Below the pieces are notes generated by a model. It saw only the letters and a list, made by a program, of their open reading frames with translations, did not search any database and was not told the origin of the DNA. Positions 27,798 through 54,138 of a stretch of 64,000 nucleotides of DNA are shown here, piece after piece. Position 1 is the first letter of the stretch. Each line of letters begins with the position of its first letter. Origin of the DNA: Bugula neritina (taxonomy: Eukaryota > Animalia > Bryozoa); NCBI GenBank assembly GCA_964035545.1, contig OZ037768.1, positions 14,021,675-14,085,674 on the forward strand, read 5' to 3'. The position numbers and the translations under genes were made by a program.

Positions 27798-29478
27798 AAC
27801 TATTTTATAAATAGTAATGCAAATAAGTTACTTTAAAGCCCTATGAAATTGGGACTTTTATCTTGATTGATACTAATAGATAACAGGTATAGTAATATTA
27901 TTAGTGTGATATAGTAAGTAAGAGCTACAGTAATAATAATGAGTAATAGTGTGCAATAATAGTAATATTATTCTATGATATTTAACAAATTCACAAATTC
28001 AAATTATAGTAGTAAAGTAGTGAACGTAAATTTATTTGCATAGGTTGAGTTTAAAACTAAAAAACATTGAAAACTGTTGGTAGCAGAACTGGATAATTTG
28101 TAACTCAAACTTTACTAGCACTAATACCTGAAATTGCCTAACTCAGGCAACTTATTAAACTTATTGATCAAACTTATACATTTAATTGCCTTGAAGATTT
28201 TGTTTGACTTACAAGTTACTTGAGGGATATTACTAATAATTTTAGTATCACTATTAGTATAACTGTCACTATGAGTATCAGTATGAGACAATTGCAATGA
28301 CAATTTACATGTCACATGGGTGTTCCAATAATTTGATTTTACATTAAATTTAATATAGTAATAATAATAGTAATACTCATACTGATAAATGATAAATATG
28401 GAAATAAATGTAGTAACACTATCACTATCAGCGACTGTGAGTATGACATTCATATTGACTGTATGTGTATCATGGAATAATCACGGATTTGGTGTATTGT
28501 AGTAATTTTATGCTGCTACTAGATGCAGGGTTATAAAATTACTGGAGGTTCATAGGAAATTGATGCTGCACACAGAACGTAAGAGCTCTTTGCCAAAAGA
28601 GTATGAGAGAGAAAACTACACTTGCCAGTCTGATAAAATGTATTGAAGACCTGCTTATTATAGAGCCCATGTCCGACTCTTTACAATAGTGTAGCCACCA
28701 ATGTTAATTACAATCACTGTAATTATCAGGAGAGTACAGTCACTAAGTGCAGCTCCGGTCCAATTCACTCACTAAGGCATTCCACCTCACCTATATTTGA
28801 GTGGAAAGCCTTGTTCTGAGATAAGCGACCGATTCAGGCATCTAAAAATCCGATCAGAGTCCAAATTGGAGAAATCGGCCATCCGGATTGACATTTGATT
28901 TGGCCCAATTTGAATTTCTGTAGGGGAAACTTATCACGCCATATGGGTTGCATCATTTTCAGTACAAAACCAATTACAAGCTAAACAATCAAAATTAACC
29001 CCATATGCGTGAACAAGGAAAGTTCTAGACTTGCTCAGGCTAGCTTATACACAACTGCCCACCACTCACAAGCATGATAAACATATGTATGACTAAGATT
29101 TACTACCGCGAGTGGAATAACAATATATACGCCAAAATCTACTACAGAATGACATCAGTTCCATTGTATCAGCATCACTATGACTATCAGTGTCATAATG
29201 ATGATTACTATGGCTATGACAGTTTTGCGTAGTTCATGTTATTTGTTTTAGCTATCGTTGAAGAGAGTGAACGTGCTCAAGCTAGTTGATTAGTGGAAGA
29301 GGCCGAAGCCGTGCTTTATTTCCACAATATATATAATACAACTAATACTAAAATTATCCTAATATAAGTGAAACAATTGATTGTTAGTACTATGTACAAA
29401 AATAGTAAATTAATAAAATAACAACTACAAATAAATGTTTGCATAAATACCATACATCTCCCACAGAATAGAAAAGTG

Positions 29479-32400
29479 CTAGGTAGGTATGAATGTTTTA
29501 AGAGAGCACATAGTCTGCCGTCTAACTAGGGGGGGGGGCTTCCGATCCCTGGTTGAACGCCGTAGGTTGTCGCTATGATTGGCACTCTCAGTGGTTTCAA
29601 TCTCAGTGCCGCCAACATCTTGCTCAAGATTTTTAGGTACCTCAGGACACGCTGTCTCACTGTCAAGCAACTTTATGTCCTGTCGGTTTCTTCGTAGGAG
29701 GTCATTGTTGAGCTGCACGGCATAGGCTCTGCTAGTTAACTGTTTATTTATTTATGCCACCTGCCATTTCTTCCAGTGTTGACTCCAGTCCCGGACCAAA
29801 ACTGGTTAACCTTCCTTCAGCTCTGCCAAATTTCTTGCTTTGTCATTAAACCTCTGCTGCAGTCTGTTGCTGCAGCTTCACTTTTCCCACCAGCATGGGT
29901 TATCTGTTTTGGACGTGACCTGTGGCAGCACTGATCTGGTTGGCTTTCCAATAAGTTGTTGAATTGGACTAGCTGTCAGGTCTTCCTTGGTGGTGTTTAG
30001 ATGTTCCAGCAGAGCCAGTTCGGGCTTTGCACATCTGCGGAGTATGCGTTTAATTATTTTTGCAGCAGAATCTGCTTTCCAATTAGATTGCAGATGATAA
30101 GGAGAGCTGGTGGTGTGTTTAAAATTCCGCAATTGGTTAAAAGCAGAAAACTGGTGTGAAGAAAACTGTGGTTCATTGTCAGTGTGACCCTGTTTGGGTA
30201 TTCCCAGGCGTCCAAAACAGTGCTTTATAGAGTTGATTACAGTCTTTGTTGTTTGGTTGTTCAGTCGGTCATATTCAAGATAGTCAGTCGTATAGTCAAC
30301 AATAGTAAGGTAATGAGTGTGGTTGTATTCAACTAAGTCGATTCCTACTTTTGTCTAGGGTTGTTCAGGAACTACGTGGAGTAAAAGTGTTTTCTTCTGT
30401 TGTCGGGAAGCATCCATTTGATATTGGCGATAGCTAGCAATATTGTTTTTGATGTCATTGGTGATGCCAAACCAAAACACTGTGTGACGGGCACATCTTA
30501 GTGTAGAGTTAATGCCATTATGGCCAGTGTGAAGTAGTTGAAGAAACTTTTTCTAGAGTGCCTTTGGGATAATGGCTCTTAGCCCTTTGTAAACAATGCC
30601 ATTGCCAATAGATAGTTCATCCTGAAAGTGTTTGTACTGGTCGTAAGTTGTGCAGTTGTGAGTGTTCCAGTCACGTTTAATAAAGTTCATCAGTGTCATA
30701 AGCTCATTGTCTTGTGCAGTAGCAGTCCTAATGCCATTAATCAAGTCGTCACAAACAGGAGAGTCATTATTTTGAGAGTCAATGAGGAAGATATGTTCTG
30801 GTAGTTGTTAATAATTGGGTGCGTCAAAGTATGAGTCTCTTGAAAATAAGTTGGCCATGACCTGTTCAGCACCCTTTTGCCAAGGTACATTAATGTTAGG
30901 GTATCTTTGTAAGTGAAAAAGCGTATCCTGCAACCTCCGTGATGCCTTATAAATGGATTTCCTAAAAATAGAGACAAGGGGTTTGTGGTCAGTCTGGATG
31001 GTGACTAAAGATATACTGGTCAAAGCATTCAGTGCCAAACACTATGGCAAGGCACTCAAGCTCTAACGGCACATAGCTCTGTTCTGATTTTGTCAAACTG
31101 CGAGATGCATATGCTACAGGCTTGCCGCATTGCATGAGTGTTGCACCCACATCAGCATTTGACGTGCCAGTTTGTATAGTAACTGGCTTGTTACAGTCAA
31201 AGTATTGTATAGTCTCCGAGTCAGTTAGTAAGGTCTGCAGTCGATTGAAGGCGTTCATTTTGTCATCAGTCCAGTGAAAGTCTCGAGCATTGTCTTGTGT
31301 CAGTAAACGTCATAATGGTTTAGATTTCGATGCTATATTGTTAATACATTTTGACATGTATGTAATATGATCGAGGAACCGTTTTACTCCTTGTGGAGAT
31401 GAGGGAGGTTTCATCTTAAGAACAGCATTCACTTTGTTAGGATCTGGTTTAAGTCCATTATTTATGAGTATGTGTCCAATGTAAGAAAGAGGGATTTTTT
31501 CCTTGTTCAGTCTCAATCTTGTCTGTGGGGCACGTTTGAAAAGCGCTTGAAGATTGCTGTCATGCTCTTTCCTCGTCCTAAAAATTAAGATGTTACCTGC
31601 AACAATGTTTATGCCATCTGGACCAGCAAGATTTTCTGTGAGCCTTCTTTGAAATTCCTCCGGCGCTGATGCAACTCCGAAGGGTAGCCTTAGGTACTTG
31701 TATTTTCTTATGAAAGTCCAGAAAGTTGTCAAGTTCGTAGATTCTTCAGCTAGAGGAGTTTGATACAGACCTTCTTTGGCGTCACACAAGAAGAAAAACT
31801 TGGCGCTGTTCAATTGTGGTAAAACATTTTCCAATGTTGGCATGACAGCGTGGTTTCGTTTAATGGCTTAATTAAGATTTTGCGGATCTATGTAAATGTG
31901 TATTTTCCCATTAGGCTTCCGTACTGGCTGCAGATGGCTTATCCAGCCTGTAGGTGCTTCTACTTTGGTGATAATCTGGTGCCGTTCCAGTTCAAGAATA
32001 GCATTGATGAGATCTGATTTCATTGACAAAGGCACCTTCTGTGGTCGTACTTACACTGGTATGGCTTCAGCTTTCAGCTTTATCTTATATTCCTGCTCAA
32101 ATTTTCCAAGTCTGGTAAATATGTCATCAAAGTCGGTCAGTAAAGTCTGAAGGTCTAGGTCAATAGTGGCAAAGTTTACATTTTCACTTTCGGTGCTGAG
32201 CAGTTGTAATAGATCCAGATGCAAACATGATTTCCATGACCGCAAGCTGTGTTGAGTGGTTTCTACAACTAGGAATTTCAAGGTAGTGTAATGTCCTTGC
32301 TTGTTTTGTATTTGTATGTGCGTCCACCCTAGTGGTACACACTTGCCCTGGTCATACAAAGTCAGTACAGTATCAGTTGGTGTAAGTTTCGGTCTACCAA

Positions 32401-33425
32401 GCTTGGCATAGTCAATAGTATTAAAAGTATTGCATGACGCACCAGTGTCAAGTTGAAACTCAATGTCATAAATAGTATCTGCCTGCTTAACAGTGAGCAT
32501 CGCTAATAGTTTACAGTCCCATACTGAAGTAGAGATCGTACTTACATTTTGAGAGTCACTGTCTGAAGAGTTGTTAAATGTGACACGATTAGCTGTTTCG
32601 ATTGCGGGGCGATAATGATGCATATGTGACCTGCAGTATGCTGCAAAGTGGTTAAACTTCTTGCAATTATTGGACTGTTTACCATATGCTGAGCAGGCAC
32701 GGGGTGGGTGGTTGTCTCCAAAGTTTCCACACTAATAAGCACCAATTGAACTTCTGTCGTTGGTCTGAGAGTAAGTGTGGAAAACCTGTCCTTTTGTGTT
32801 TATCACGAGTGTAGTCGGAGTAGTATTGATGAGTCGGAGGTATATTTTTCACCAAGTTCACTTGTTCCGAGTCTGTAAATATTATCATTAGTCATGGTCT
32901 TGTAGTCAATTGCTGATGCTTCTTCATGTCTACAGAATTTAATTGCTTTGTCAACATCAGAGTCAGTCAAGTCAAACAGTTTCTTTCTAATCCTGTCACT
33001 TTTAATCGCTAGTATAAGTGCTTGTAGTATCAGTTGGTTGTACATGTCTTTCAAGTCACATAGTCCTGCAATAGTATGTATTTCAGTCAAAAACTCGTCA
33101 ATGGGTCTATTCCCTTGCTTACAAGTAAGTAATGAGTGAGTGTTAGCCACCAAGTTTATTCCTGGCTTACAGTAGTCATCAAATTGCTTCACCACTTTGA
33201 CGTAGTCAGTCTTATTATTGTCGTCAGTCCAGTTGAAAGATTCGTATATTTGGTTGCCTTAGCAGCCGATAGTTCTCAGTAAGTATGCAGTTTTCATTTT
33301 GCTTTCGGCGGTATCTTTCGCGGTGACAGTTAAAAAAAAGTTCAAAATCTCGTTTAAAAATCTTCCACTCTTCAGGTAGATTCGGTTTATTTGCTAATGG
33401 TTTTGGTGCTAGTAACTGCTCTATG
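29479..33425 (-). pseudogene. Fragmented gag-pol of element A
   Basis: Gag (EEWKIFKRDFE, CCHC remnant CKKFNHFAAYC), protease FQLDTGASCN, RT (YLRLPFGVASAPEEFQRR; catalytic motif decayed to VAGN), RNase H (PVAYASRSLTKSEQSY, TDHKPL), integrase (HTTSSPYHLQSN). Many stops and frameshifts. Confidence 0.92.
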
Positions 33426-33580
33426 TTGTCTAAAGGTCTTTTTTTAATAATGATTAGAGCCGGAGCACCATGTTTTGTGTAGTTTATGTTATTTGTTTTA
33501 GCTATTGTTAAAGAGAGTGAGCGTGCTCAAGTTAGTTGATTAACGGAAGAGGCCGAAGCCGTGTTTTATTTCCACAATAT

Positions 33581-34343: not shown

Positions 34344-34792
34344 AATATAATACAACTGCTACTAAAATTATCCTAATATAAGTGAAACATTTTATTATTA
34401 CTATAAGTACTGGTGTAATGGGATTACGTAGTATAATAATGGGGTCGTCCCCTCTTGTATGGAATACTTATAACTATGTTCTACTATCCAATCAGAGGGA
34501 CCGGAAGACAAGGTTCCGGTCAAGTAACTGTGCGCGATTAGCTAGCAGAAACCATGTGTTGTTGAGAGCAGGGACTCGTAGTAGTAACATGTGTTTATAA
34601 TTGATTGATGTATTGTGGTATTCTGATGTGATGTTATAATTATGTTTAGCGAGTTAAATAAAGGTTATCGTACGCAAACTCTATTAGTAGTTGCTAGTTA
34701 AATTGACATTAAATACGCAGGCAATCCACGCTTAATAATTGTGCTAAAACTCACAACAGTGGTGGCAGCGGTGGGATTTCGCTTATATCAAG

Positions 34793-35680
34793 ATGACAGA
34801 AAGAGGCACAGAGCTACCCATTCGGAGGAATGAAGGTGAGGAAGATAACGTTGCTATACCTATAGAACCAGAAGTGAGAGTGCATAGGGAATGTTATGAA
34901 GAGAAGTACCGGCTAAGGGTGCCCACCTTCTCAGGTGAGGAGCCGGTGGAGCAATTCGTTCAGGAATTCCAAGATGTAATGGAGGTTGCACAGTGGCCAC
35001 CCCGAATAGCATTGCTCAAGCTCCGGATGGCGCTGTCAGACAAAGCCAAGCCATACGGAGTGGGACCAGACATCGACGGGATCTTTGCTTCCCTGCGGGC
35101 CCGTTTTGGTATCTCCGCTGTAGATGCGCGGGCCCGTCTCCACAGATTGCGGCGTGATCCTCACACGCCGCTACAAGAGCACGCTACCACGGTAATGAGG
35201 CTGGCGCAGATCGCGTTCCGCGATCTGCCGCAAGTAAACCGTGAGAGGTACACTTATGATGCCTTCGTGCAATCCATCAACGACTTGGGACTCCATCACC
35301 AACTCCTGGCGAGGGGAGTCACCACGGTCGAAGGTGCGCTTGCAGAAGGGGAAGCTTACCTTCTGGCCAGTCAGCTGCACCGGAACCGTGTGACTTCTCG
35401 TCAGGTGGACATGGAGCCCTCCGCTGCTCCTACCGCTTCTAACGCGGAAACCCCAGCGGTGGCCAAGGTGACGCAGATGACGGTGGCATCGAAGGTCGCA
35501 CAAATGACCGACATGCTAGCCGAACTGGTCTCCGCCTTGGCCCCTCTCAGCCAGCTAGACACCACCCGTGAGCTTGACGGGCCACCGGTGCAGTCGCCTG
35601 GTAGAGGACACCCCTCCTGCTGGGAGTGCGGAAGACCAGGACACTTCCAGAAACACTGTCCCGACTTCAACCAGGGTTAA
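34793..35680 (+). CDS. gag: Gag of element B with CCHC zinc knuckle
   Basis: 295 aa with CWECGRPGHFQKHC. Clearly homologous to the 52303-53169 ORF (LRARFGISA, ERYTYDAFVQS, NDLGLHHQL, GEAYLLA). Confidence 0.93.
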   Translation: MTERGTELPIRRNEGEEDNVAIPIEPEVRVHRECYEEKYRLRVPTFSGEEPVEQFVQEFQDVMEVAQWPPRIALLKLRMALSDKAKPYGVGPDIDGIFASLRARFGISAVDARARLHRLRRDPHTPLQEHATTVMRLAQIAFRDLPQVNRERYTYDAFVQSINDLGLHHQLLARGVTTVEGALAEGEAYLLASQLHRNRVTSRQVDMEPSAAPTASNAETPAVAKVTQMTVASKVAQMTDMLAELVSALAPLSQLDTTRELDGPPVQSPGRGHPSCWECGRPGHFQKHCPDFNQG

Positions 35681-37712
35681 ACTACGACGGCCCGCGGATG
35701 CTCCCACATCCGGCGGGCCGCCGTTAAAACCCCAAGGGACACAGTGGCGTCCGCCACGCCGGACACCCGTCCGGGACCTCGCGGAACGGCCACCAGGATG
35801 GCAAGCAGGCTGTACAAGCCGCTCGCCGCCGGTGTTCTCAATGCTACCCCGCAACAGGTTCGACAAACGACGGACCGCAGAGTCTGCGAGGGGAAGGGCC
35901 CAAACGTTGCAAGGCGTGGCGCCACCCCCTCGACAGCTGGTCCCCAGTCGTCGTCAGGAACCTAACCCCTCCGCCAGGGCGAGGGAGAAGAGGTCACCCA
36001 AGATACCACTACATCCCCACGAGAGCAGCCTGTTTCTACCAGGACAGATAGCCGGCAAGCCTGCCAAATTCCTGTTAGACACGGGCTGCACCACCAACCT
36101 CCTGGGTCGTCGATTCTTCGACACACTCAGCGCTCAGATCAGAAGCAGGTTGGGACCGTACGAAGGCGATCATGGCACCCTGGCAGACGGGTCGTGCATC
36201 CCCTTCTACGGTATCATTGAACTCCCTGGGAGCGTCTGTGACCAGACCATCCAGGAAAGGTTCATAGTCGGACAGCTCCAAGAGGACGCCATTCTTGAGA
36301 TGCCATTTTTACAACGACACGGGTGTCACATCGATTTTGGCAAATCTGCGATGTTTATGGGCGGCCGGGAGCTCGCCTGTGTCGATAAGTTTGGCCATCC
36401 CCTAACGGGAGAAGAGCCGATAGTACGTACCTGTACTATGCCCGGCCACTCCCGGGACACCGTCCACCGCCAGGTAGACGGTGGCCGTACCTCCAGGCCG
36501 GGAGCTGTAGAGAGCGCGCACCCAAACGTCCCACCTGTCCGCAGCTCTAACCAGCTGACACGGAGAGGAAAGACCTCGGTGCCATGCCTCCACTCCCCCT
36601 CGGAGACAGTGAATCTACCACCCACCTCTCCACCAAGCTGTACTCCTTCTGTTCAAGAAGATAACAGCAGGCCATCGCGGGAAACCGCGATGGGAAGTCC
36701 TCTAGAAAGCCCGTCTCCAGGGCGAAGGACTGCCTCACCCCACGCCCCACACAGCCAGGGGACTCGTGGGAGAGAATCAGACGGTTGTGTAGATAACGAG
36801 AAGCGCCAAGAGACGGCCACGTTACTACACAAAACCGAGGCTACACCTCACCTTGGGGACCCTGACATGCCCCTAGAGGTGGCACAGGACCCCCACGCCG
36901 AACCCGTCTCAGCCGATGGCGTCAAGGAGCTACGACACCTCCAGGAACATATTCCGGGGGTGGTAGCCGACGTCTATCGAATAAAACGGGAAGGGCGACG
37001 ACCCAGTGACAAACAACGGAAGCAGGGCTGCGCCGAGTGGCAGCTGTACTGCCGACGTTGGAACGCACTGCGGATCGGGCCGGATGGTCTATTGACCATA
37101 TCTTTGGCCGCTAACCACAACCAGCCAGACCAGGAGAGGACCCTCTGTCCTGCCGCCATCCGCCGAGAGTTGATAGAAGAGGTACACCAACAGGCTCACG
37201 GGGGAGCCCAACAAGTGCTCACCGAACTACAACTCTGGTGGTATTGGCCTAACATGGAGCGTGAAGTACGACGCAGAGTTAAGCAGTGCAGAGTCTGCCG
37301 GGCCAGTAAGCACGGCCGCCCTCCTGACAAGGTGGGGCGGCAAAGGCAAAGTGCAGAAAGACCCGGGCAGACGGAGACTGCTGACCTGGTCGACAAACCG
37401 CCCAGGATGCAACCCAAAGCAGTGGCGAGGCAGGAAAAGCCACACCCGTTCAGGGAAGTGCGCTCACCGCCTTCAGCGTGCAAGCTGCCGCCACCACTTC
37501 CTAGGTCAGGAACCGACCTGGAAGTGCAAAACCCCCCCACGGGAGGGGCTCCGTACGGAGATGCTGGGGAAGCTCCATTTGTCACAAATTGGCTGGAAGC
37601 ACCACCCGTGAGACGTGACCGTCCATGGGCGAGTAAACCGCCCTGGCTGAGGACAACACTTCCCCAGGCTCCGTATGGAGATGCTAGGAAAGCTCCATTT
37701 GTCACAAACTAG
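35675..37712 (+). CDS. pol: Deleted Pol of element B: protease + spacer + integrase Zn-binding domain; no RT, RNase H or DDE core
   Basis: FLLDTGCTTNLL protease motif and HQQAH...CRVC HHCC motif. Collinear with element C pol except for two gaps at about 36870 and 37394. Homology continues past the TAG to 38045. Confidence 0.88.
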
Positions 37713-37780
37713 CTGGAGGCACCACCCGTGAGACGTGACCGTCCACGGGCGAGTAAACCGCCTTGGTTGGTGACGACACC
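37547..37780 (+). repeat. 120-bp tandem duplication within element B pol
   Basis: GGCTCCGTA(C/T)GGAGATGCT(G/A)GG...GAGTAAACCGCC starts at 37547 and again at 37667. Confidence 0.92.
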
Positions 37781-38360
37781 TCGAAAACGGTGTTCTAGAC
37801 CAACCCCCGCGTATCTCGAGGACTTACCAGGTGCCGTTCAGGGCGCGGTCAAACGTCCCACGAGGTGCCGTACGGGGAAGAGAGCAAGACGTGGAAGTTG
37901 TGAACACCACGAGAATATCAACTTTTGCTTCGGCGGAATCTCAAACGAGATTCATACGCCGGAAGTAATAAGTCCTAGCCACGTTTCACAACCACGCTGC
38001 TCGCTCTTTCATCACATTGATACAGCTTTGAGTAGACGTACGTAGAAATCATAAACATACCACTCTCATTCACAATGGCTTGCCAAGAATCGAGAGGTGA
38101 GTTAGTTATGTTTTTGGTACGAGGACTAAACTGCATTAATCAGCTTAACTGTAACAGAATAAGCTGGAGACTCGGTAATGATTTTTAGTGGTGAGAATTC
38201 ACATTGACTCTAAGACTGAACAGTCTGTTACAGCAGTGTGTGTTTTCGATCAACTATTCATTAGCTGAGTCTCACGAGTGTCTAATTGAGTTAAGTACTC
38301 ACCAGGCTGTATACGCCGGCTGTACTCAGTGTACCCTCTTACACTGTTATACTCTTGCAG

Positions 38361-39103
38361 ATCACATTCGATCGACCAACTCCGGGTCACAAGATCTACA
38401 CCCCCTCTCCTCCTTGGACAACGGACCGGAAACGGACAACGGACTGCCCGTGGCACTACGTCGAAGACATAAATGGGTGTCACGACGGATGGAGTGACAA
38501 ATTGAAGAAGCCTGGGGACCAAGTGGCTCACATTGAACCTGCCACGTGTGTTATGAGGAGCTTCCCTCACACCAAGGACTACGGCTGCATGTGAATGCAC
38601 ACTTCCTACTACGCTTCTGTCCGTGCGGATTTCACGACGTATACCCCTACCCCGTCGTGGCATATATGATGGACTGTTTCGCAGGCGAAGGCTATGTAGT
38701 GGACGCGGACAATTACGACCAGTATCTAGAAGCCGTCAGACCAGTGGTTAAGAAGGCTTTGACCTGGGCCGCATTATCCTCCGGGTTTTATACACTGCTA
38801 ACAGCCCCCCGTCAGAAATCCCCTATGGTAAAAACGGTCGCTGCAGTCATACCCCGGCCAGACAACACCCCCATGGAAGCATCAAATTCTCCAGAAGAAG
38901 CGACGCCAACTCCAACCAGGCCTAACCGACTAGCAACTGTTGAGGAAAGACTCCTACGACTGCAGGATGAATTCACCCAATTGGCCCCCGACTTACTCAG
39001 CACTACAATGAGCCTTAGTGAACTAAAGGGCTCAGTGGGACGCCTTAAGCGTAGATTACGTGCACGGCAAGCACGACACCGGATCCAGACCCTGCAAAAC
39101 TAG
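38361..39103 (+). pseudogene. ORF3 of element B (zinc finger + coiled coil), interrupted by two in-frame TGA codons
   Basis: ORFs 38204-38497 and 38546-39103 are in the same frame. CHVC-x12-HVNAH, FCPCG and a C-terminal heptad helix align with element C ORF3. TGA at 38495 and 38534 align with Arg. Confidence 0.82.
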
Positions 39104-40644
39104 GAGCTGGAAGTTGACAATTCCACCCCGCATATCCTCGGGGTACTACATTGTGATCATGTAAATACTTGATCTGCTAACGACCGATCTGTGTAACGAT
39201 CCAGATCTCTCTCTCTGTAGCTGGCCAGCTGTGTGTTGGCCGTCTCCTTATCTTACTTATATATATGTCGTACGTTTGATATTTCTTTTCTTTTTCTTTG
39301 TGGATTTTCCTTACTTATGTCATTTTTGCATTATTATACTATTTTGTTTTATAAGAAAGTGGGCTTTCTGCTGGTGGGGGCGGTGTAATGGGATTACGTA
39401 GTATAATAATGGGGTCGTCCCCTCTTGTATGGAATACTTATAACTATGTTCTACTATCCAATCAGAGGGACCAGAAGACAAGGTTCCGGTCAAGTAACTG
39501 TGCGCGATTAGCTAGCAGAAACCATGTGTTGTTGAGAGCAGGGACTCGTAGTAGTAACATGTGTTTATAATTGATTGATGTATTGTGGTATTCTGATGTG
39601 ATGTTATAATTATGTTTAGCGAGTTAAATAAAGGTTATCGTACGCAAACTCTATTAGTAGTTGCTAGTTAAATTGACATTAAATACGCAGGCAATCCACG
39701 CTTAATAATTGTGCTAAAACTCACAACACTATGTACAAAAATAGTAAATTAATAAAATAACAACTACAAATAAATCACTTTAAACGTTCGCATGAATACT
39801 AAACAATGACTATCAACATCGTCTATCAGTATCACTAATACTCACACTGACAGTATAACTATAAAGTTCTACAAGTAAAAGTATTACTCATACTCATAGT
39901 GATAGATCATTGAGTCATGCTGATACTTATACTATCACTCAGTGATACTGATAGTATGAGTATACGTATCGGTATCACTATCAGTATCTGCTATGGCCTA
40001 TGCCCTATGATGCCCTAGGCCTATGGCCATAGTATGGGCTATGGGCTAGGAGCATGAGTATTACTATTATTATTAAGAATAAGTTTAACCAACAATCAAG
40101 TAGTAGTTTTACAGCTGTCAGAGAGCAAGGTTGAGAGTTAGCACTTGTAGGATTCACATTACTTATTGCTGATAACTCATTACTGATAACTTATTACTAT
40201 TAGTTATTACGTATTGTAAAAAAACTATTGTTCGTTTGTAAACAATTATTATTCGGTCGAGTTTCCAATTTTTAGTTTACAATATTGACAATTCTAATTA
40301 GTATTACTACTTTAATTTAGCATCGTCAAATTGTTCTTTGACATCATTGCTAGATTCGTCATTGACCGTATATTAGCACGTTTTCAAACAATCCTTGAGG
40401 TCTAGTAATAAACTGCATTAAACATAATGTGTATAAAGGTTTATAGAACAAGAGATCCTCCAAGTCAAAGGCTAATATCTACAGCAACATAATAATATAA
40501 ACAAAACGGCCACCTAATCTATGACTGTCGATATGTTTATTATAGTTTATTAACTCCAAAAATTCATTTGTAATCGATTAAACAGCATTTACGGCAAAAG
40601 ACTGATTGAATAAAGCTATAATTTTAGATTTTTATTCAAAAATA

Positions 40645-44599: not shown

Positions 44600-45782
44600 A
44601 ACGGGGGTCACAATGGGCCGATCTTTTAATTTTTTGCTCTCATTTGTCTGTTTTTCAAGTTACTAGTTCAATAATCTCTAGTCTAAATGCTACACCAGTT
44701 GTCTATTATAGGTATCAGTTGGTTTTTTTCTATCTCTTTCACAACTTTCAGGATAATGACATTTTCATGACGAAGAAATGGCCCATTGTGCCCCGGGACA
44801 CAACAAATATATTGAAACTTTGCTGATTTGGTTGCGTCTGATCTTTATTAATTTAATATACACAAGTAAATAAAAATACTCTTTCAGATCTACAGCAAAA
44901 ATCATGTTTTAGCTGTACAGTTTGTACCACCGCAGATAGCAGGGGAGGCAAAATCAAACGCACATCACTCATTTCTACGGTGCCATTATCATTACTGTTT
45001 AGAACTAAAAATGTTTTTTCTATTTTCACTTCAGAGCAACGTTTATTAAAAAAAAACTTTAGTAACATGTACTACAAAATTCCGAGTGGACTTTTTTCTA
45101 TGAACTGTAGCTAAGGTGCATGGCGGAGGTTTGTGACTGAAATGGGGAAGGGAAGGGGGGAGGAAATGAGCAAATCACAATTTATTTTAGTCAAATACAT
45201 GTATATTCCCTCAATGATATAATGTATAATGAATATCATGACTATCTACTAGTAGCAACAGCAGAGTGTTTTGTATGATGTGTAAAATGGCAAAGCTATA
45301 TAACCACACCAGATGTATATAATGTAGATCTATTAGGGGAGCAATTCACCTTGTAGTTTGGTAGTCTTACCATGATGTATTTGATATTTACAAAAAGGTC
45401 AGAAATGGCTATATCTATAGATTTTATGAACATTTCATCTAACTTTTTGGGCAAACAAACTAATAACAGTGATCAGGGTGCAATGATCAGGTGGTCCATT
45501 GTGCCCGTGTGGCTCAAGGAAAATTTATTTTAGAGTTTCCTATTATACTAATTAGGCAATGTAGAAACAAGCAATGGCAACAATATCAGTAAAATCTAAG
45601 CTTGTTATCTTTAGGTGTAAAAAGTTATACAACTTCAACGACATCTTAAAAAATGTACAAAAAGTAGGTAAAACAGTTTTTGACTGGCCTCTTCAACATG
45701 TAGGCTTCGCAAGTTTTGAAACTACAATGGCTGAAAAATTATGTCAATACCTTTTTATTAAAAAAATCACAACTCTAAGTCA

Positions 45783-45785
<3 letters not shown>
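44600..45785. mobile_element. Second, inverted and end-truncated copy of the MITE at 22468-23784
   Basis: Reverse-complement similarity over about 1.2 kb (e.g. GAGCAAATCACAATTTATTTTAGTCAAATACATGTATATTCCCTCAATG). Begins AACGGGGGTCACAATGGGCC and stops at the microsatellite. Confidence 0.9.
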
Positions 45786-46057
<272 letters not shown>

Positions 46058-46625
46058 ATGATTTCCAGATTTAGGGTCGATGTGCAACCAAGAGAGTCTA
46101 TTTATTACTAAAGAAACTTCACCGTGATAAGTCGAGTAGATATCGTTATATTTTAATACAAGAATACATAATAAAACTAGTATACAACAGTAAATAATAC
46201 GCACGTCTATTTAATTTACAGCACTATCCTCAACTGAGCTAGTAGCGCGAAGCTGCTACTATTACTCATAAACAGCCTAGCTAATTGGCTAATACATTGT
46301 TCCGGGTCAATACGCAACCTTGCGTATTGTGTTGCTGGTAGCTCCACGAGCCACCACACTGCCCCCTCCAGCAGAAAGCCCTCTTTCTGATAAAAATACA
46401 ATTCACATAAAAAAACGTATACTTCGTTGTGGAGAGAGAGAACAGTATAAAAGTATATACAAACAAAACAACTGATAAAATATACAGGTATACATATAAA
46501 ACGTGCACAATGCGTAATATGTAAGCGAAAATCCTATTTACATGTAGAGTACGTGCCACCATAATGGTAGGGAATGGCACAGAGAGGTAGGGGAAGAGTA
46601 GTATGGAGTTGGAGATAGACTCATG

Positions 46626-47699
46626 TTAACTGCGGGCCGCCCGCTTCATGCGTTTAATAGACTCCTGTAAATATTTGAGTTCACTGGATGCAGCCTGTAC
46701 CCGTGGGGCCAGCCTATACACTTCTTGCTCCAAGTCGTGTGCCCTAGCTTCTACTTCACGTAGGTTGCGGGCCCAGGGGGACGAGCGAGAGGAAGTCGGC
46801 TGTCTGTGTCTTTTCCGCTCTGAGGATGGAAGGGGAGGAGGGAGTGTATATGCATTTGTGTCTACCCTCTGTAGTACGACACGAGGAAAGGTATGCGGTA
46901 TGCGTAGAGGACTGTGAGGTGGAGAGTTAGTAGACTGTGTAGGTTTATCTGCGGCTCCAGAGATGATGGGTCGCGGGGAAGGGAAGCCTTGCTCCAGGCG
47001 AGATAGCCGAGCTGAGTCAGTGATGAGTGGTTTGATGGCGTTGAGAAAGGCAGGATAGGATGATTCGTCTACTTCATAGACATGCCCTTGATAACACTGC
47101 ATAGTACGTTGGTGCCGCAGTAGGTAATCACGATTGTAGCTATATTCTCCGCAAGGGCAGAAAGTGGTGATGTAGTGTTGCGGCAAGTGTACTTTCAGCC
47201 TGCGGTGGGTTGTGAATCGCTGCTGGCAGAGGTTGCATTCACGATTACTCTCACCTCCTTGATGGGTCCTAATCTCTCTCTCTGTGGCAGGGGTAATCCA
47301 GTTGGAGGTTGCTTCTAACTGGGGTGGCAGTCGCCTGGTTGTAGAAGTTGTTGGGGCTGGCTCTGGGTCCCACGCCATCTCTAGAGAAGGCATGCCCGGA
47401 GAGACGGGCGCGAGTGTGTCTACAAAAGTAGAATTATTGTTAGATCGCGGTGGATCTTTACAACATAATTCTAGTGACTGTCGACCGTTGCTAGCCTGAG
47501 AGTCACAGCTTTTGGAATGCACTCGAGGAACCGATGAATCATGTGTGGACTGACCAAGAACAGTGTCTAGCTCCAGGTCTAACAGACCGTCGGCCATTAC
47601 AGTGTCTTCATCGTCATTCACATGAAACGTGGTTCCCAGTAATTCTGATTCAATCTGCTGAATTAGTTTAGAATTTACTGGCATCGAGCCCGTTTCCAT
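46626..47699 (-). CDS. ORF3 of element C: C2H2-type zinc-finger, basic patch and coiled-coil protein (probably entered by splicing at 47419)
   Basis: CNLC-x12-HLPQH, second finger-like FCPCG...HQRTMQC, ERKRHRQP, heptad helix LREVEARAHDLEQEVYRLAPRVQAASSELKYLQESIKRMK. No signal peptide or TM segment. Homolog in element B. Confidence 0.85.
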   Translation of the reverse strand: METGSMPVNSKLIQQIESELLGTTFHVNDDEDTVMADGLLDLELDTVLGQSTHDSSVPRVHSKSCDSQASNGRQSLELCCKDPPRSNNNSTFVDTLAPVSPGMPSLEMAWDPEPAPTTSTTRRLPPQLEATSNWITPATEREIRTHQGGESNRECNLCQQRFTTHRRLKVHLPQHYITTFCPCGEYSYNRDYLLRHQRTMQCYQGHVYEVDESSYPAFLNAIKPLITDSARLSRLEQGFPSPRPIISGAADKPTQSTNSPPHSPLRIPHTFPRVVLQRVDTNAYTLPPPLPSSERKRHRQPTSSRSSPWARNLREVEARAHDLEQEVYRLAPRVQAASSELKYLQESIKRMKRAARS

Positions 47700-47716: not shown

Positions 47717-50700
47717 TTATACTGGCTTACCTGGGAACTCGGTATTAATGTCCATACTCAACGTTCTTGGTAAGATTGGAGCTGGTTGTGAGATACGTCT
47801 GCCTTTGGCGATGTCAGCATAAGAAAAGGCTGAGCATCGTTTCTGAGGCACGAGGTCGGAACTATTTGCTTTACGCGCATTAATTCCTCCCACTATTCCG
47901 CCCTCGCAAAAGTTGATATTTGCGTGGGGTTCACAACTCCAACATTTTATCGTACGGTTTTCCCCTAGACTTTCATGTGCGCCGCTTCTAATGCAGTCAC
48001 ATACGAAGTCTTTTAAATATGGTGGGGGTTTCCTCGTACGCTGTCCCCTTTCTAGGGGGGGTGACACGCTTGCCGGTTCGTTAGTAGGGGCCTCTAATGG
48101 CGTCTCTACTTCACCGTTAGCGGTCACCTCTTCTTGTTCTCCGGATGGAGCCCCTCCCTCCGTGGGGGTTTGCACTTCCGGAACCGGCTCGGTTTCTGGA
48201 AATGATGGAATTAGACTTGGCGGTGGCGGACACGCTTCTGTTGACAAAAGCTGCCGCTCCTCTCTCACCAAGTTTTCTTCCCGCGGTATGACCACTTCGT
48301 ATTCAGGTCCATGCCACTGTCGCCCGCGCATCGTTGTCTGCCTCCTGGGCTCTAACAACGGGGGGGCTTCTCCCACTCCGTCGGGGCTAGCCCAATACGG
48401 TTTCAAGCGAGACTCATTCTGGATAGACACCTGTCCTGAGCGCTCGATCTTGTACGTATGATTGGGCATAGCCTCGACGACCACGTAGGGGCCTACGAAC
48501 TTAGGCTTCAGTTTATCAGCCTGTCCGCGACGCCTACGGTAATTGACCATCTACACCTTATCTCCCGTTTGATAGAGAGGTGGTTCATCGGAATCTTCGT
48601 GCCGCACCTTCCACTGCTGTTGGCGCAGTATCTCGTGTGCGGCCTTCATCCGTTCCACTAGTTCACTGGCATACTCGTGAACCGAGTTATCTTGCTCTGG
48701 AACGTGATAGGTGAGATGGTCAGGGACACGAGTCTCTCTCCCGAGCATCAAGAGGTTTGGGGTCTTACCAGTACTGGTGTGTGGGGTGCTACGGTATGCA
48801 CGCATGACCTGCGGCAACACCGTATCCCATTCCTCTTGACCTCGTTCAAGGAGGAGACTCCGGAGTGCATCACCTAGCATCCGGTTGTTGCGCTCCACCA
48901 CCCCGTTACCTTGAGGGTGGTAGGGGGTGGTCCTGCTCTGATTTACTCCCCAGAGGTGGCAAAGGTCGCTCATCAGTTGAAACTGGAATTGAGCGCCTTG
49001 ATCAGAGTGTATCTGTTCGGGAAGTCCAAAATAACAGAATACATGTTGGTCTAGTGCCCTGGCCACTGTTGGGGCTGATGCATCTGGGATAGCCAGAGCA
49101 TCCGCTCACCTAGTAAAGTGGTCGGTTAGTACTAGGATCCAATTATTGCCTCTGGGGGTCAGGGACATGGGTCCGACCAGGTCTACAGCGACTACTTGCC
49201 AGGGCCTACCAGCATATAGCCTCCGCCGTCCTGCTTCACCAGGGGGGCGGCTATGCTTACTGGCCTGGCAGATCTCACACTGTTTGACTCTGAGCCGGAC
49301 GTCACGCTCCATTTGTGGCCAATACCACCGGAGTCGTAATTTGGATATCACTCTCTTGACCCCTGCGTGGGCCTGTTTGTGAGTATCCCAAATCAACTCA
49401 CGGCGGATGGCCGTGGGGCAGACTACCCTCTTCCTTTCCGGGTGTCTGCCGCTGGCAGCTAGGGAGATGGTGAGTAACCCATCCTGCCCGATCCGCAGCG
49501 AGTCCCAACGCTGACAGTATAGCCGGAACCCGGCGCATCCCTGTCGTATGCGTTCTTCGCTGGGTCGTCGCCCTTCCCTTTTGGCCCGGTATATGTCTGC
49601 CACGACTCCAGGCAGCTCTTCTTGGAGCTTCTTCAGCTCTCGAACATTACCGGCCAGTACAGGGTTGGCGCGGAGGTTTTGTACATCTTCCGGGGACTCA
49701 TCAACTCCTTGCCTGAGTTGACCCTGGTCCCAGTCAAACGGTGCTCCGTGCTGAGCCAGCGTCTCCAACTCACACCGCGGGGGACCTCCATCCCTCCTCT
49801 CGATGTTGAGACACTGTTTGCAACCTCCGTCAGGTCGGCGACTCAACCCATCCGCATTGCTGTGTCTCTTGCCCGGTCGATGTTCGATCCGGTATGAGAA
49901 TTCAGCTAGGATTTCGAGCCACCGGGCGACCTGACTAGAGGGCTCTGCTCTCTTGCACAACCAGATCAGCGAGGCATGATCCGTACGCAGCCGGAACTTC
50001 CTGCCGTATAGGTATGGTCTGAAGTGCTTCACTGACTTGATTACTGCCAGCAGCTCCTTGCGGGTAGTGCAGTAATTTCGTTCAGCGGGTGAGAGAGACT
50101 TGCTGTAGTAGGCTACTACTACCTCTCGGCCTTCCTGCACTTGTGACAGCACAGCGCCAACATTTTGGTCACTGGCGTCAGTGTCGAGGATGTACTCCAG
50201 AGTGGAGTCTGGGTAGGCCAAGATGGGCGCCGTTAGTAGGCAGCCCTTGAGGCGGTCGAACGCTCCTTGTTCGACTGGGGTACACTGCCACGTCACTCCC
50301 TTTGCGGTGAGCCGGTTTAACGGCTGGGCTATGCCCGCAAAGTCTGGTATGTATTGCCTGTAATACCCTACCAGCCCCAAGAAAGCCCGGAGTCCGGTCA
50401 AGTCTTGGGGGGTGACCCAGTCTTCTACTGCCCGTACCTTTTCGGGATCCGTTGCCACGCCGTTTCGACCGACAACGTGCCCCAGGTACTTGACCTCCGG
50501 CTGCAATAGAGCGCACTTGGAAGGTTTGAGCTTAAGACCGGCACCTCGGAGTCTCTCGAAAACCTCCCGCAGACGACTGACATGTGTCTCGAAGTCCGGA
50601 GAGATTACGATGACATCATCGAGGTAGACCAGCAGTGTCTTCCAATGGAGTCCGCTAAGGACTTGTTCCATCAGCCTCTGGAAGGTGGCTGGGGCAGAGG

Positions 50701-52354
50701 TTAACCCGAAGGGCAGCACCTTCCACTTCCACAAACCGTCCCGTGTGATAAACGCCGCTTTCTCCTGGGCGTCGGGACTCAGAGGAACTTGCCAATAGCC
50801 GCTTAGCAAGTCTAACGTACTGAAGTACTTGCTGCCGGCTAGGGCGTCCAATGACTCGTCAATACGAGGTAGAGGGTAGGCGTCCTGTATGGTCACGCTA
50901 TTGAGTTTGCGGTAATCCACACAGAACCGCCAACTGCCGTCTTTCTTCCGGACCAGTACGACTGGCGAGCTCCACGCACTATGGGCGGGCTCTATCAGTC
51001 CCCGGTCCAGAAGATCCCGTACTTGTCGGCTAACCTCCTTCTCTTTCTCCGGCCCCAGCCTGCGTGTGGGCTGCCGGACAGGGACTGTCCCTGCAGTCAG
51101 CGGTATTTCGTGTCTGACAATTCCAGTCAGTCCCACGTCATGCTCTCCGCTGCTGAACACATCACCGTAGTCGCGTAGTAACTTGGCCATAACTTGGCGT
51201 TCTCTGTTACTCGCGCAGCCGCCACAGGCTGTTTCATATAACTCCCGGAGATGTGTTGGGACTGCCCCTCGTCCCTGAATAGGGTGTCGAGGGGGTGCCT
51301 CCGTCGCGTCACCCAGCGACGGGCCCACGTCCTCTTCCTGGACGGAGTGGAACCGGCCCAGCATTGACCCAGCTGGGAGCTCAATGGGCTCGGTAAAGAG
51401 GTTGACACACTGCACTAAGACCTCCCCTCGCTCAGTTAGTCGGTTTAAACTACTGGCGAGTTGGATCCTTTCGTGCGCGCCTTCAACGACCCCGAGCCTG
51501 GCTATCCGGTTGCTGTTCACTCGGCAGTGGATAGTAGCTCTGGAGCGTCCGGGTACGGTGCAGTTTCGAACTACCTGAACACCGCCCACCAGAGGACGCC
51601 CAAACTTATCTACACAGGCGAGTTCTCGCCCGCCCATCAGCACCACCGACTTACTAAAGTCTATTCGGCACTGGTGTTGCTTCAAGAAGGGCATTCCGAG
51701 GATAGCATCTTCCTCCAGTTGGCCTATGACAAAGGTCTCCTGTACAGCCTGGTCTCGGACACGCCCAGGGAGCTCGATAATACCATAAAAGGGAATACAT
51801 GACCCGTCTGCCAGGGTGCCATGTTCCCCAGTATACGGTCGTACTCTATCCCTGTCCCGGCGGGGCAGTGCCTCAAAGACTCTACGGCTGAGAAGGTTGG
51901 TAGTACAACCGGAGTCGAGCAGGAAAGTGACGGCGTTGCCGGCCACCTTTCCGGGTAGGAAATAGCTCTCTCCATGTGGTTGTACTTTCACCCCCCCCCC
52001 CCCCCCCCCCGCATGTGCTGTCCTGGGTTGACAGGACGGCGGGGGTTTCACCCGTGGTTTACGGGGCTTCCGGCGGCGAGGTTGGTGCCGGCGGGGTTTG
52101 GGGCTCTCCACTGGGCCTTCTGGCTCCATTTCAGTGGCGGGCTCCTCTTCCCGAGGTAACCGGTGGAACCGGTTAGCGAGTGGCAGGGAGAAGGTACTCG
52201 GCCGTTGTGCGGGCCTACTAGTCCTGCGTGGTACCTGCCACTCGGGTGGAGTGTTCCGTCGTGTCCGTACGGACAGACGACGGCGTGTCCCACCATACTC
52301 CTTCAGTTGCGGCCCGCGGGGAGGGAGAGTGTCCGCGGGCCGTGACAGTTTAAC
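47717..52354 (-). CDS. pol: Pol of element C (PR-RT-RNase H-IN) with two in-frame stops in integrase
   Basis: FLLDSGCT, FCVDYRKLN, YLDD, LDTDAS, TDHASL, HHCC, VAVDLVG, HSDQG, ERNNR, VGPY. ORFs 49106-52129, 48551-49066 and 47717-48550 share one frame, separated by TGA (49106) and TAG (48551). Frame is open upstream to GTTAAAC at 52348-52354. Confidence 0.95.
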
Positions 52355-53169
52355 GCCCCCTGGTATTGGGGTCGCCCTTTCTGTCCCTGGTCCTGATCAG
52401 CGCTACTCCAGCCCTGCCCCACAGGCGTTGGGGGCGCCCGCAGGGCCTGACCGGGGCCAGCACCGGCCAGAATGGTTACCAGTTGTCCCAGCATCTCTAC
52501 CATACGGTCCACTTCGGCTTCCAGCGGGAGGGCTTCGGGACCTGTCGTAGCCCTGGCAGCGCTGACTCCAACTACTGGTGGGTTCCGTCGTGCTTGATGC
52601 ATTTGGGTAGCCAACAGGTAAGCTTCTCCAGCCTTCAGGGCATCCTCTATTCTGGTTATCCCTTTAGCTCGTAGTTGATGGTGTAGGCCCAGGTCGTTTA
52701 GTGACTGGACAAAGGCGTCATAGGTGTAACGCTCTTGGTGCTGTGCTGGCAGATCGCTATATGCAATCTGCGCCAGCTTCTTCACCGTCGCGGCATGTTC
52801 TTGCAGCGAGGTCCGCGGGGCGCGGCACAATCTCTCTAGCTTGGTCCTAGCGTCTATTGCGGAGATACCAAAACGGGCCCGCAGCGCAGCCAGTATCCCG
52901 TTTACGTCTGTTCCCACTCCGTACGGCTTGGCTTGTTCCGTCACCGCTCTCCGCAATTGGATAAGGGCCACTCTATGCGGCCATTGAGCAACCTCCTTAA
53001 CCTCTCTAAATTCTTGTATAAATTGTTCGACATCTTCCGACCCAGTAAAGGTGGGAGCTTTCAAGCAATGTCTATAAGCTTCTTCTCCCTCACGATTCAC
53101 AGGATTAACAGCATTTCTACGCTCACCTTCTACTGGGGGTGGTTGCATTCTAGCATTTTCAGTCTCCAT
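52303..53169 (-). CDS. gag: Gag of element C (zinc knuckle degenerate)
   Basis: 288 aa immediately after the PBS, homologous to element B Gag, overlapping pol in the -1 frame. Confidence 0.92.
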   Translation of the reverse strand: METENARMQPPPVEGERRNAVNPVNREGEEAYRHCLKAPTFTGSEDVEQFIQEFREVKEVAQWPHRVALIQLRRAVTEQAKPYGVGTDVNGILAALRARFGISAIDARTKLERLCRAPRTSLQEHAATVKKLAQIAYSDLPAQHQERYTYDAFVQSLNDLGLHHQLRAKGITRIEDALKAGEAYLLATQMHQARRNPPVVGVSAARATTGPEALPLEAEVDRMVEMLGQLVTILAGAGPGQALRAPPTPVGQGWSSADQDQGQKGRPQYQGALNCHGPRTLSLPAGRN

Positions 53170-54138
53170 CTTTGATGTGCACTATCCCACTGCTGCCACC
53201 ACTGTTATGATTTCCAGATTTAGGGTCGATGTGCAACCAAGAGAGTCTATTTATTACTAAAGAAACTTCACCGTGATAAGTCGAGTAGATATCGTTATAT
53301 TTTAATACAAGAATACATAATAAAACTAGTATACAACAGTAAATAATACGCACGTCTATTTAATTTACAGCACTATCCTCAACTGAGCTAGTAGCGCGAA
53401 GCTGCTACTATTACTCATAAACAGCCTAGCTAATTGGCTAATACATTGTTCCGGGTCAATACGCAACCTTGCGTATTGTGTTGCTGGTAGCTCCACGAGC
53501 CACCACAATATATATATCTTAGATTAAAAGTGAGTTGCCAAAGCTCTCTGCTTAAACTGATTTCAGGCTCACTTTTTTGAGATCAAAACCAGTTTTTTGC
53601 ATTTATTTGCTGGAAGTAGCATGACACCAAGTGTAATTGTAATAAGAAATAGACTAATGGATTTGGGGTAGAAATGTGGAGCTACTGCATATAATTGTCA
53701 AGAATAGTATTTGTTGGAAATCGAACAGTTAATAATATGTCTTTCTAATGATAAACTTCTACATTTACAGGTATTTTGAAACATATTTTAAGGCTTGAAG
53801 CTGTGAAAGGTGAAAAGATTTACCTACTCATTTTAGCAGTATTTGCAATTATATCAACCCTTTTAGCTTATTTTTTACTGCTATATCAAATTCATTTTTT
53901 CAGTTGAAGACATTGGTATTTATCCTTATATAATGTTAAAGGAAAAAGTTACTTGAACAAACAAAAAGACCATAGCTATTGTTTGCTCAGATTAGGTTCA
54001 ATTGAATTTATTGACCCAACAATTGGTCCTATTGTAGCTGCACAATACTGTTAAGTAGGCTTATACAAATGCAAACTGTACACTGCAGTAATCTGTCAAG
54101 TTAGATTACTCTCAGTTGCTATGCAACTATAATACAAA

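Follow-up and report, generated by a model that had tools for sequence, protein, structure and literature searches.

A zinc-finger third gene with conserved splice signals in two Ty3/Gypsy retrotransposons of the bryozoan Bugula neritina

Results

Within a 64,000-nucleotide stretch of the Bugula neritina genome (contig OZ037768.1; hereafter the window, to which all positions refer), two related retrotransposons, B and C, each carry a third open reading frame, ORF3. The presence of a zinc-finger gene together with splice signals that are conserved across the family suggests a nuclear regulator that is likely to be made by splicing, in the style of complex retroviruses. The spliced ORF3 described in the initial annotation is probably real. 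For the fuller reading, i.e., that ORF3 yields a zinc-finger and long-helix protein from a spliced subgenomic RNA and that this protein may act in the nucleus as a DNA-binding self-regulator of element expression, we see an even chance.

Two Ty3/Gypsy elements carry a third open reading frame

B and C are Ty3/Gypsy LTR retrotransposons. Both possess paired LTRs (TG...CA), a primer-binding-site-like tract and a purine-rich tract, and in C gag is followed by protease (PR), reverse transcriptase (RT), RNase H and integrase in that order; B is internally deleted. On the forward strand, the 345-bp 5' LTR of B (34414..34758), which has one mismatch to the 3' LTR (39384..39728), is followed by a primer-binding-site-like 18-mer (34760..34777), a gag gene with a weak CCHC knuckle (34793..35680) and a pol remnant (35559..37712), in which the protease and the integrase H2C2 motif are present and RT-RNase H and the integrase core are deleted. 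The 18-mer might pair with a tRNA-Leu primer; ARAGORN did not confirm the Leu assignment, and the 18-mer coincides in part with the end of a cyanobacterial tRNA that was called as Met. On the reverse strand, C has identical LTRs of 305 bp (5', 53203..53507; 3', 46054..46358, the latter adjoining a (TA)n tract), a similar 18-mer (53184..53201), gag (52303..53169) and a pol gene of the order PR-RT-RNase H-integrase-SH3-tail (47717..52396) with stops at 49106-49108 and 48551-48553.

Two other assignments were ruled out. In the Gmr1-type Gypsy clade, integrase lies before RT. In C, RT precedes integrase, and in a tree the integrase-first rows lie in a clade of 19 rows that does not include C. Nor is either element an errantivirus or other env-carrying element, given that ORF3 encodes a finger domain and a helix and matches no env family.

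Splice signals at the start of gag and before ORF3 are conserved

The initial annotation had predicted that ORF3 is expressed from a subgenomic mRNA whose first exon consists of the first 14 gag codons plus one G. These donors were found as described: in B, the ATG at 34793 begins a predicted exon (34793..34835, +) that ends in GAAG/GTGAGG at 34835/34836, with the donor GT at 34836, and in C the ATG at 53169 begins one (53127..53169, -) that ends in GAAG/GTGAGC at 53127/53126, with the donor GT at 53126. The acceptors proposed at 38360/38361 in B (38347..38360, +) and at 47420/47419 in C (47420..47443, -, with a branch-point-like CTAAC) were likewise found, and all donors and acceptors are in phase 1. 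The ORF3 exon of C (46626..47419, -) is intact and encodes a W-helix and two zinc fingers, an S/P/R-rich linker with a basic cluster, and a 49-residue helix; that of B (38361..39103, +) encodes a finger pair and a C-terminal helix. The predicted product lengths of 261 (B) and 278 (C) codons are arithmetically correct, but the 261 codons of B contain two in-frame stops, at 38495 and 38534, and an intact product was therefore rejected for this copy.

All GT and AG sites of each element were ranked with a generic splice matrix. With this matrix, the gag donor ranked third of 310 GT sites in B and second of 428 in C, and the ORF3 acceptor first of 365 AG sites in B and third of 572 in C. These ranks exceed chance expectation.

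The codons at the donor also stand out from the surrounding gag sequence. Synonymous sites in the gag genes of B and C are near saturation, being identical in 24/48 two-fold and 21/54 four-fold codons; despite this, GAA GGT GAG is the same in both elements, GGT accounting for 32 of 187 Gly codons. Among 55 gag N-termini of family proteins, the residues E-G-E of the donor are kept in 51, 49 and 55 sequences, as against at most 21 and 27 for the flanking columns, in N-termini that are otherwise variable and that place the motif at 10, 14, 15 or 17 codons from the start. Where Gly is replaced (six cases), the new residue is Ser or Asp in five, the outcome expected of a GGY codon, and the four replacements by Ser can keep the GT, as judged from proteins rather than DNA. 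Conservation of E-G-E could be a protein-level constraint. At the acceptor, the flanking residues fit YAG/G in all 25 C-lineage proteins, with L, V, S or I at -1 and D, E, A or G at +1. Conserved, phase-compatible signals for a subgenomic ORF3 mRNA are thus found at both donor and acceptor across the family, as judged in the relatives through their proteins. As had been noted, an in-frame ATG is missing from B in the stretch that runs from the nearest upstream stop to the acceptor. Moreover, no conserved ORF3 start was found in the B lineage (0/12 relatives match the upstream profile of C), and B-lineage ORF3 therefore needs an upstream exon.

A second donor offers other possible routes to ORF3

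In each element the top-ranked donor is a site other than that in gag, i.e., 38096/38097 in B and 47731/47730 in C. It closes a candidate mini-exon consisting of an ATG, six codons and a G in B (38075..38096, +; donor GAG/GTGAGT) and of an ATG, seven codons and a G in C (47731..47755, -; donor CAG/GTAAGC). As this phase-1 donor, which lies 264 nt (B) or 311 nt (C) before the ORF3 acceptor, has its own ATG, a direct gag-ORF3 join is only one of several possible mRNAs; the predicted second donor offers a short-intron route to ORF3 without the gag exon. A candidate phase-1 acceptor in the integrase tail of C (48196..48215, -; rank 2/572) would begin a middle exon of 465 nt that is in frame and ends at 47731, and a candidate at the homologous position in B (37497..37509, +) is a weak lead. 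The ORF3 frame of C is also open for 93 codons upstream of the acceptor (47420..47699, -), within the 311-nt second intron; its ATG at 47699 is conserved, as is the extension in the C lineage. A rod hairpin is predicted within each second intron, at 38163..38279 (+) in B and at about 47522-47640 (-), within the extension, in C.

No spliced RNA was found for the predicted junctions 34835-38361 and 53127-47419, a result of little weight given the sparse contigs of RNA run X1, which barely covers the elements (20 contigs on C and five on B, none joined). The gag-ORF3 junction was not among the joints listed (15 of 42 for C and 15 of 24 for B), and the start of the gag exon was absent from all 201 ORF3-side proteins. 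Run X2 behaves as genomic DNA and contains the empty site of B. The claim of a subgenomic gag-ORF3 mRNA is supported in part, by the family-wide signature at both signals, but the direct join of 14 gag codons to ORF3 remains a prediction: an equally strong donor lies nearer in both elements, the C lineage has a longer unspliced frame, and the join appears in none of the RNA contigs or database proteins.

The ORF3 protein is predicted to combine C2H2-type fingers with a long helix

In ORF3, tandem C2H2-type fingers form a compact domain, which is accompanied by a basic cluster and a long helix (residues 214-262). The Cys and His residues of the fingers are invariant across 49 sequences, and the basic cluster is present in 15/17. 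Finger 1 shows a C-x2-C-x12-H-x3-H motif, with the best Pfam matches below cut-off. The domain was modelled with a pLDDT of 93.7 and a pTM of 0.84, and its finger pair overlays DNA-bound C2H2 pairs with an rmsd of 2.4-2.8 over ~50 residues (Z 3.3-3.6), which is a weak and generic match. Two fingers of the tandem C2H2 DNA-binding proteins Kaiso, ZBTB38, SALL4 ZFC4 and CTCF overlay the pair; unlike these, ORF3 has a 5-residue linker, a C-x-C second finger and extra packed helices, with Z < 4. Foldseek yielded no match at E<=0.001 in the PDB and viral libraries, a wide structure search with full-length ORF3 returned coiled coils only, and ESM Atlas matches were to unnamed or generic C2H2 clusters. 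Prediction of an ORF3 dimer scored 0.18 against a mark of 0.32. The predicted anatomy of fingers, basic cluster and helix agrees with the earlier proposal that the cargo is a nuclear regulator.

A finger pair follows integrase in related elements

In 5/5 assessable clade relatives, integrase is followed on its 3' side by a finger pair, which is fused in frame to Pol in the two nearest, L048 and L064. Homology of these fingers to ORF3 is uncertain (hhalign probabilities of 88.7 and 6.1, and missed by the core HMM). Neither L048 nor L064 has a donor above 5.3, compared with 6.6-7.3 in B and C, and strong donors are lacking in two relatives that are more distant and have the fingers in a separate ORF. 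Scans of loci with ORF3, gag or RT as query yielded no confirmed relatives, and the ORF3 core HMM detected none among the 155 loci from PBS-pattern scans (metagenome: 7/64 parts read). The finger module probably began as an extension at the C-terminus of Pol and has since become a gene with its own expression.

Discussion

In the reading that we prefer, splicing of LTR transcripts would join the donor in gag to the acceptor of ORF3, with about equal probability directly or through a middle exon ending at the second donor, and a longer C-lineage form with an acidic N-terminus would arise where the short second intron is retained. The basic cluster would import the protein into the nucleus, the long helix would dimerise it, and the finger pair would read a site in the element and thereby tune transcription or silencing.

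The same splicing might instead serve a protein that, like Rev or CERV, binds structured RNA in the second intron and so allows unspliced genomic RNA to be exported, a role we consider possible but unlikely. The second introns of both elements are more stably folded than shuffled sequences (z -3.08 and -3.48), and a rod of ~110 nt with 44-46 pairs occupies the same place in both despite their diverged sequence. However, structure is found along the whole of both elements (mean z -1.65 and -1.8), the second intron ranks 6/73 folding windows in C and ties for 4-7 of 52 in B, and RNAalifold, applied to the two introns aligned with MAFFT, did not recover the rod. At the protein level the C-lineage intron shows 74% identity, and the substitutions in it are no more conservative than chance would give (0.29 vs 0.35 expected, and 0.42 in the core), which suggests constraint at the nucleotide level. 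A precedent exists in CERV, described as gag-frame exons joined to ORF3, with a leucine zipper, an NLS and a cysteine finger, and as needed for export (PMC10309623); against this, the finger geometry of ORF3 resembles that of DNA-bound pairs, and the role would be partly circular if ORF3 were the sole spliced gene.

We regard as rather unlikely that an internal promoter in the integrase tail drives ORF3 from the mini-exon ATG and second donor, or from the upstream ATG of C, with the gag donor idle or serving another product. Such a promoter would leave the strongest signature, the invariant G-E codons of gag, unexplained. It would account for second donors that rank first in both elements, are positionally homologous and in phase 1, and are preceded by an ATG at a distance of 7-8 codons; P0051 has a similar motif (P-G-K-S), as does P0060 in degenerate form, 12/37 C-lineage proteins reach the upstream ATG as against 17/37 that reach the C-terminus, and the env genes of Tor3b/4b provide a precedent (PMC4402516). 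Quite unlikely, in our judgement, is an integrase-associated targeting domain, with splicing from the second donor restoring a fusion of the fingers to Pol or to the integrase tail. The fingers are in frame with Pol in L048 and L064, although their homology to ORF3 is uncertain; P0148, P0157, P0064 and P0165 share an ORF of fingers with integrase-tail or protease sequence; and C sits in (TA)n. The second donor of C is in phase 1 in the pol frame, but the mini-exon of B is out of the pol-tail frame, with intervening stops. Finally, the splice-like sites could be chance or protein-level motifs and ORF3 translated solely from unspliced RNA, in keeping with the lack of spliced RNA in the sparse run X1 and with the open frame and own ATG of C. 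This appears improbable in view of the codon-level signatures at both donor and acceptor, the lack of a conserved ORF3 start in the B lineage and the top matrix ranks in both elements.

The tax/rex genes of HTLV and tat/rev of HIV are spliced from a 5' donor and again from a second one close to where pol ends, which belongs to a short exon bearing an ATG; their regulatory exon lies 3'. The multi-exon pattern predicted for B and C is like that of these doubly spliced regulators; unlike them, B and C have no env and no sequence relation to those viruses. Splicing to a gag peptide is already known from idefix env and Cer1 CERV. In Drosophila errantiviruses of the idefix subclade, env is described as spliced to a Gag peptide that starts the product (10.1101/2023.08.03.551782), and in Oikopleura Tor3a a donor at the start of gag is reported to join an acceptor before ORF3, with env as cargo (PMC4402516). 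Both resemble B and C in the gag-start donor and the acceptor before ORF3, whereas their cargo is a membrane glycoprotein and that of B and C a predicted soluble finger/helix protein, with a second donor before the acceptor. The env of Tor3b/4b, described as made from an internal promoter as an unspliced mRNA (PMC4402516), is a precedent for ORF3 expression that begins inside or beyond pol; a mini-exon is absent from that description in the part available.

CERV, of the C. elegans element Cer1, is described as a protein of 517 aa from five exons, with H, M (C4-type loop) and G-protein-like domains and without obvious homology outside nematodes (PMC10309623). By that account it is an env-position ORF of a Gypsy/Ty3 element completed by spliced gag-frame exons, as is predicted for ORF3 of B and C, and as a nuclear protein with a zipper, an NLS candidate and a zinc-binding motif it resembles the predicted anatomy of ORF3; ORF3 differs from CERV as described in its C2H2-type pair and its much shorter predicted gag part. 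Among animal Gypsy elements, the literature searched yielded no spliced nuclear regulator other than CERV. The zinc-finger cargo of B and C was not found described in that literature (Repbase and subscription journals lay outside its scope): the word 'zinc' is absent from PMC11117352 and PMC13524379, and PMC2836005, in its available text, concerns other domains.

More tentatively, and with the whole scenario unlikely to hold, a marine-invertebrate Gypsy clade may have independently evolved complex-retrovirus expression, with a finger module at the end of Pol becoming a multiply spliced regulator that acts on the element by way of a structured part of the intron, and with the same module domesticated by bryozoan hosts. 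The multiply spliced scheme would then comprise the gag exon, an ATG-bearing middle exon and a retained-intron long form.

If the finding is true, regulatory accessory genes would have arisen more than once among LTR retrotransposons, the finger protein being unrelated to CERV. It would also assign a function to a class of env-position ORFs that have lacked an explanation, and would outline a route from an extension of Pol to a separate gene and on to a host gene.

Structure of elements B and C

Element B (34414-39728, + strand) and element C (53507-46054, - strand), two related Ty3/Gypsy retrotransposons, are bounded by LTR pairs with one mismatch in 345 bases and none in 305 bases, respectively. 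C carries gag followed by PR-RT-RNase H-integrase; two stops interrupt its pol. In B, RT-RNase H and the integrase core are missing, and a tandem 120-nt duplication (37547-37782) occupies its integrase tail where that core was deleted. B was inserted into an AT-rich repeat (34345-34413 / 39728-39775), an uninterrupted copy of which lies nearby at 29331-29436; sequencing run X2, which behaves as genomic DNA, contains the empty site, and no clean target duplication was seen flanking B. C adjoins a (TA)n tract (45766-46053), with TA repeats on either flank.

The window also holds a decayed third LTR element (29222-33580, - strand) with protease, RT and integrase fragments and 109-nt direct repeats, and an inverted repeat pair of about 1.2 kb, 85-95% alike (22552-23776 and 44604-45767). 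Host saccharopine dehydrogenase exons lie at 58357-58764 and 63200-63655 (- strand), and the elements may be located within or next to that gene.

The gag donor is conserved at the protein level

The splice coordinates of the initial annotation proved accurate on re-examination of both elements. In each, GAAG|GTGAG follows 14 gag codons plus one G (B, 34835/34836; C, 53127/53126). Donor conservation in relatives was read from proteins, and is thus indirect. Among 120 listed of 131 gag homologues, 56 had a long N-terminus and 55 aligned at the donor, where the three donor codons encode E in 51, G in 49 and E in all 55; flanking columns reached at most 21 and 27 of the same 55. The distance from the gag start to the motif is 10, 14, 15 or 17 codons, and G-E was retained by 22 of 24 representatives sharing <70% identity (one misaligned row dropped). 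The six non-Gly residues were Ser (four), Asp and Arg; single transitions from Gly to Ser or Asp are possible only from GGY. Synonymous sites in gag are near saturation between B and C (24/48 and 21/54 identical). GGT accounts for 32 of 187 Gly codons and GGTGAG for only three of 17 G-E pairs, two of these being the B and C donor sites.

The ORF3 acceptor and a predicted second intron

A phase-1 acceptor precedes ORF3, the gene 3' of pol, in both elements (B, 38360/38361; C, 47420/47419). The C lineage gave 26 matches, of which one spurious row was dropped. In the 25 proteins kept, the residue just before the junction was L (9), V (8), S (7) or I (1), never F or M, all codable as NYA; the residue after it was D (22), E, A or G (one each), whose codons all begin with G, and that two before was L (20) or F (5). 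By eye, two B-lineage proteins read F-S-D (P0070) and L-S-G (P0125) at this position. The C upstream profile was matched by none of 12 B-lineage proteins and B has, as first noted, no in-frame ATG 5' of the acceptor; the B lineage therefore needs an upstream exon.

When splice sites were ranked with a generic matrix, the best-scoring donor in each element was a second one (B, 38097; C, 47730), 264 nt (B) and 311 nt (C) upstream of the acceptor. These second donors align with each other, are both in phase 1 and have an ATG 7-8 codons 5'; in the database protein P0051 the corresponding M-D-I...P-G-K-S residues are in the ORF3 frame, and P0060 has a degenerate counterpart. In the C integrase tail, a rank-2 phase-1 acceptor would open an in-frame middle exon of 465 nt; B has a CAG at the homologous place, with the frame broken downstream. 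For the C lineage, the predicted second intron, between second donor and acceptor, doubles as an open 93-codon ORF3 extension with a conserved ATG at its start, reached by 12 of 37 proteins (17 of 37 reach the C-terminus). Identity is 0.74 in the extension versus 0.76 in the core, and its changes are not conservative (0.29 versus 0.42 in the core; 0.35 expected).

The ORF3 protein and its relatives

Word search returned 33 ORF3 homologues, and cluster representatives yielded 202 at E<=0.001, including a few generic C2H2 proteins. Conserved in a 49-sequence alignment are a C2H2 finger and a C-x-C...H finger separated by a 5-residue linker. Beyond the fingers, an S/P/R-rich linker that contains a basic cluster (15/17) runs to a 49-residue helix. 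No Pfam family passed the cut-off. The predicted fold of the 121-residue domain is confident, and the superposition of its modelled finger pair on DNA-bound C2H2 pairs is weak (Z 3.3-3.6). We favour a product that would act as a DNA-binding nuclear regulator; the rival readings are a Rev/CERV-like export factor and an integration-targeting factor. Bearing on the former, a rod of 44-46 pairs is predicted at the same place in both second introns; B and C are structured along their whole length, not just there, and a two-sequence consensus fold of the introns did not recover the rod. The rod counts as no more than a pointer to a Rev-type element.

The nearest named proteins with the ORF3 domain are bryozoan, which makes a bryozoan the likely host. 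The domain occurs in Watersipora subatra XP_067940963/4 (two copies) and XP_067944745 and in Bugula neritina KAF6037488 (the P0035/P0298, P0107, P0303, P0300 group). The N-termini of P0300 and P0303 are similar but lead into distinct finger exons, a pattern that looks like host splicing onto the finger module.

PBS-pattern scans gave 155 loci, and a tree was built of C and 34 elements with long RT. C groups with L048 and L064 (100/99) within an eight-row clade (95/99). All five clade relatives extending that far have a finger pair past integrase: L048 and L064 carry it in the Pol frame, and the more distant L054 (6503-7981), L147 and L150 (230-1546, - strand) in an ORF of its own; the pattern had no match in the remaining 29 tree elements. 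Four proteins (P0148, P0157, P0064, P0165) join the ORF3 domain to pol sequence within one ORF. Common descent of the clade fingers and ORF3 is uncertain. No strong donor occurs in L048 or L064, which would be expected had the donor arrived with finger detachment; the same lack in L147 and L150 fits this less well. The L048 (1125-7631) and L064 (1067-7384) Pol ORFs span 2100-2170 aa; in them a dUTPase separates RNase H from integrase, and the finger pair sits far C-terminal. L147 and L150 show an acceptor-like AG ahead of the ATG and an R/S-rich tract after. Gypsy elements of eukaryotic type also turned up in several bacterial MAG records (L124-L153), where host DNA in the bins is the probable source.

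Expression of ORF3

Retroviral tax/rex and tat/rev offer a comparison for ORF3 expression. No splice joint was found in RNA run X1 (20 contigs on C, five on B) and no gag-exon start among 201 ORF3-side proteins, so that ORF3 splicing stands as a prediction. The proposed 261-codon B product is not intact in this copy, its frame containing stops at 38495 and 38534; all 10 X2 contigs spanning 38495 differ from B there, so this stop is not common to those copies.

No account of this finger ORF was found in the literature searched, which lay outside Repbase and closed journals. Splicing of a gag peptide to ORF3 is known from idefix-subclade env (10.1101/2023.08.03.551782), Tor3a (PMC4402516) and CERV (PMC10309623), and Tor3b/4b exemplify the internal-promoter alternative (PMC4402516). 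For B and C, expression of ORF3 by splicing is predicted with good confidence, and the gag donor is rather likely to serve in it. The sites and phases of the proposed subgenomic mRNA, 14 gag codons joined directly to ORF3, stand; given the second donor, the candidate middle exon and the open C-lineage extension, several mRNAs are possible, and the direct join, one of them, is predicted only tentatively, at slightly under even chances.

The architecture of B and C is richer than the initial annotation described. The check it proposed, conservation of both sites across the family, gives a protein-level signature at donor and acceptor, with relatives judged via their proteins, and the two sites are real features, apparently under selection.
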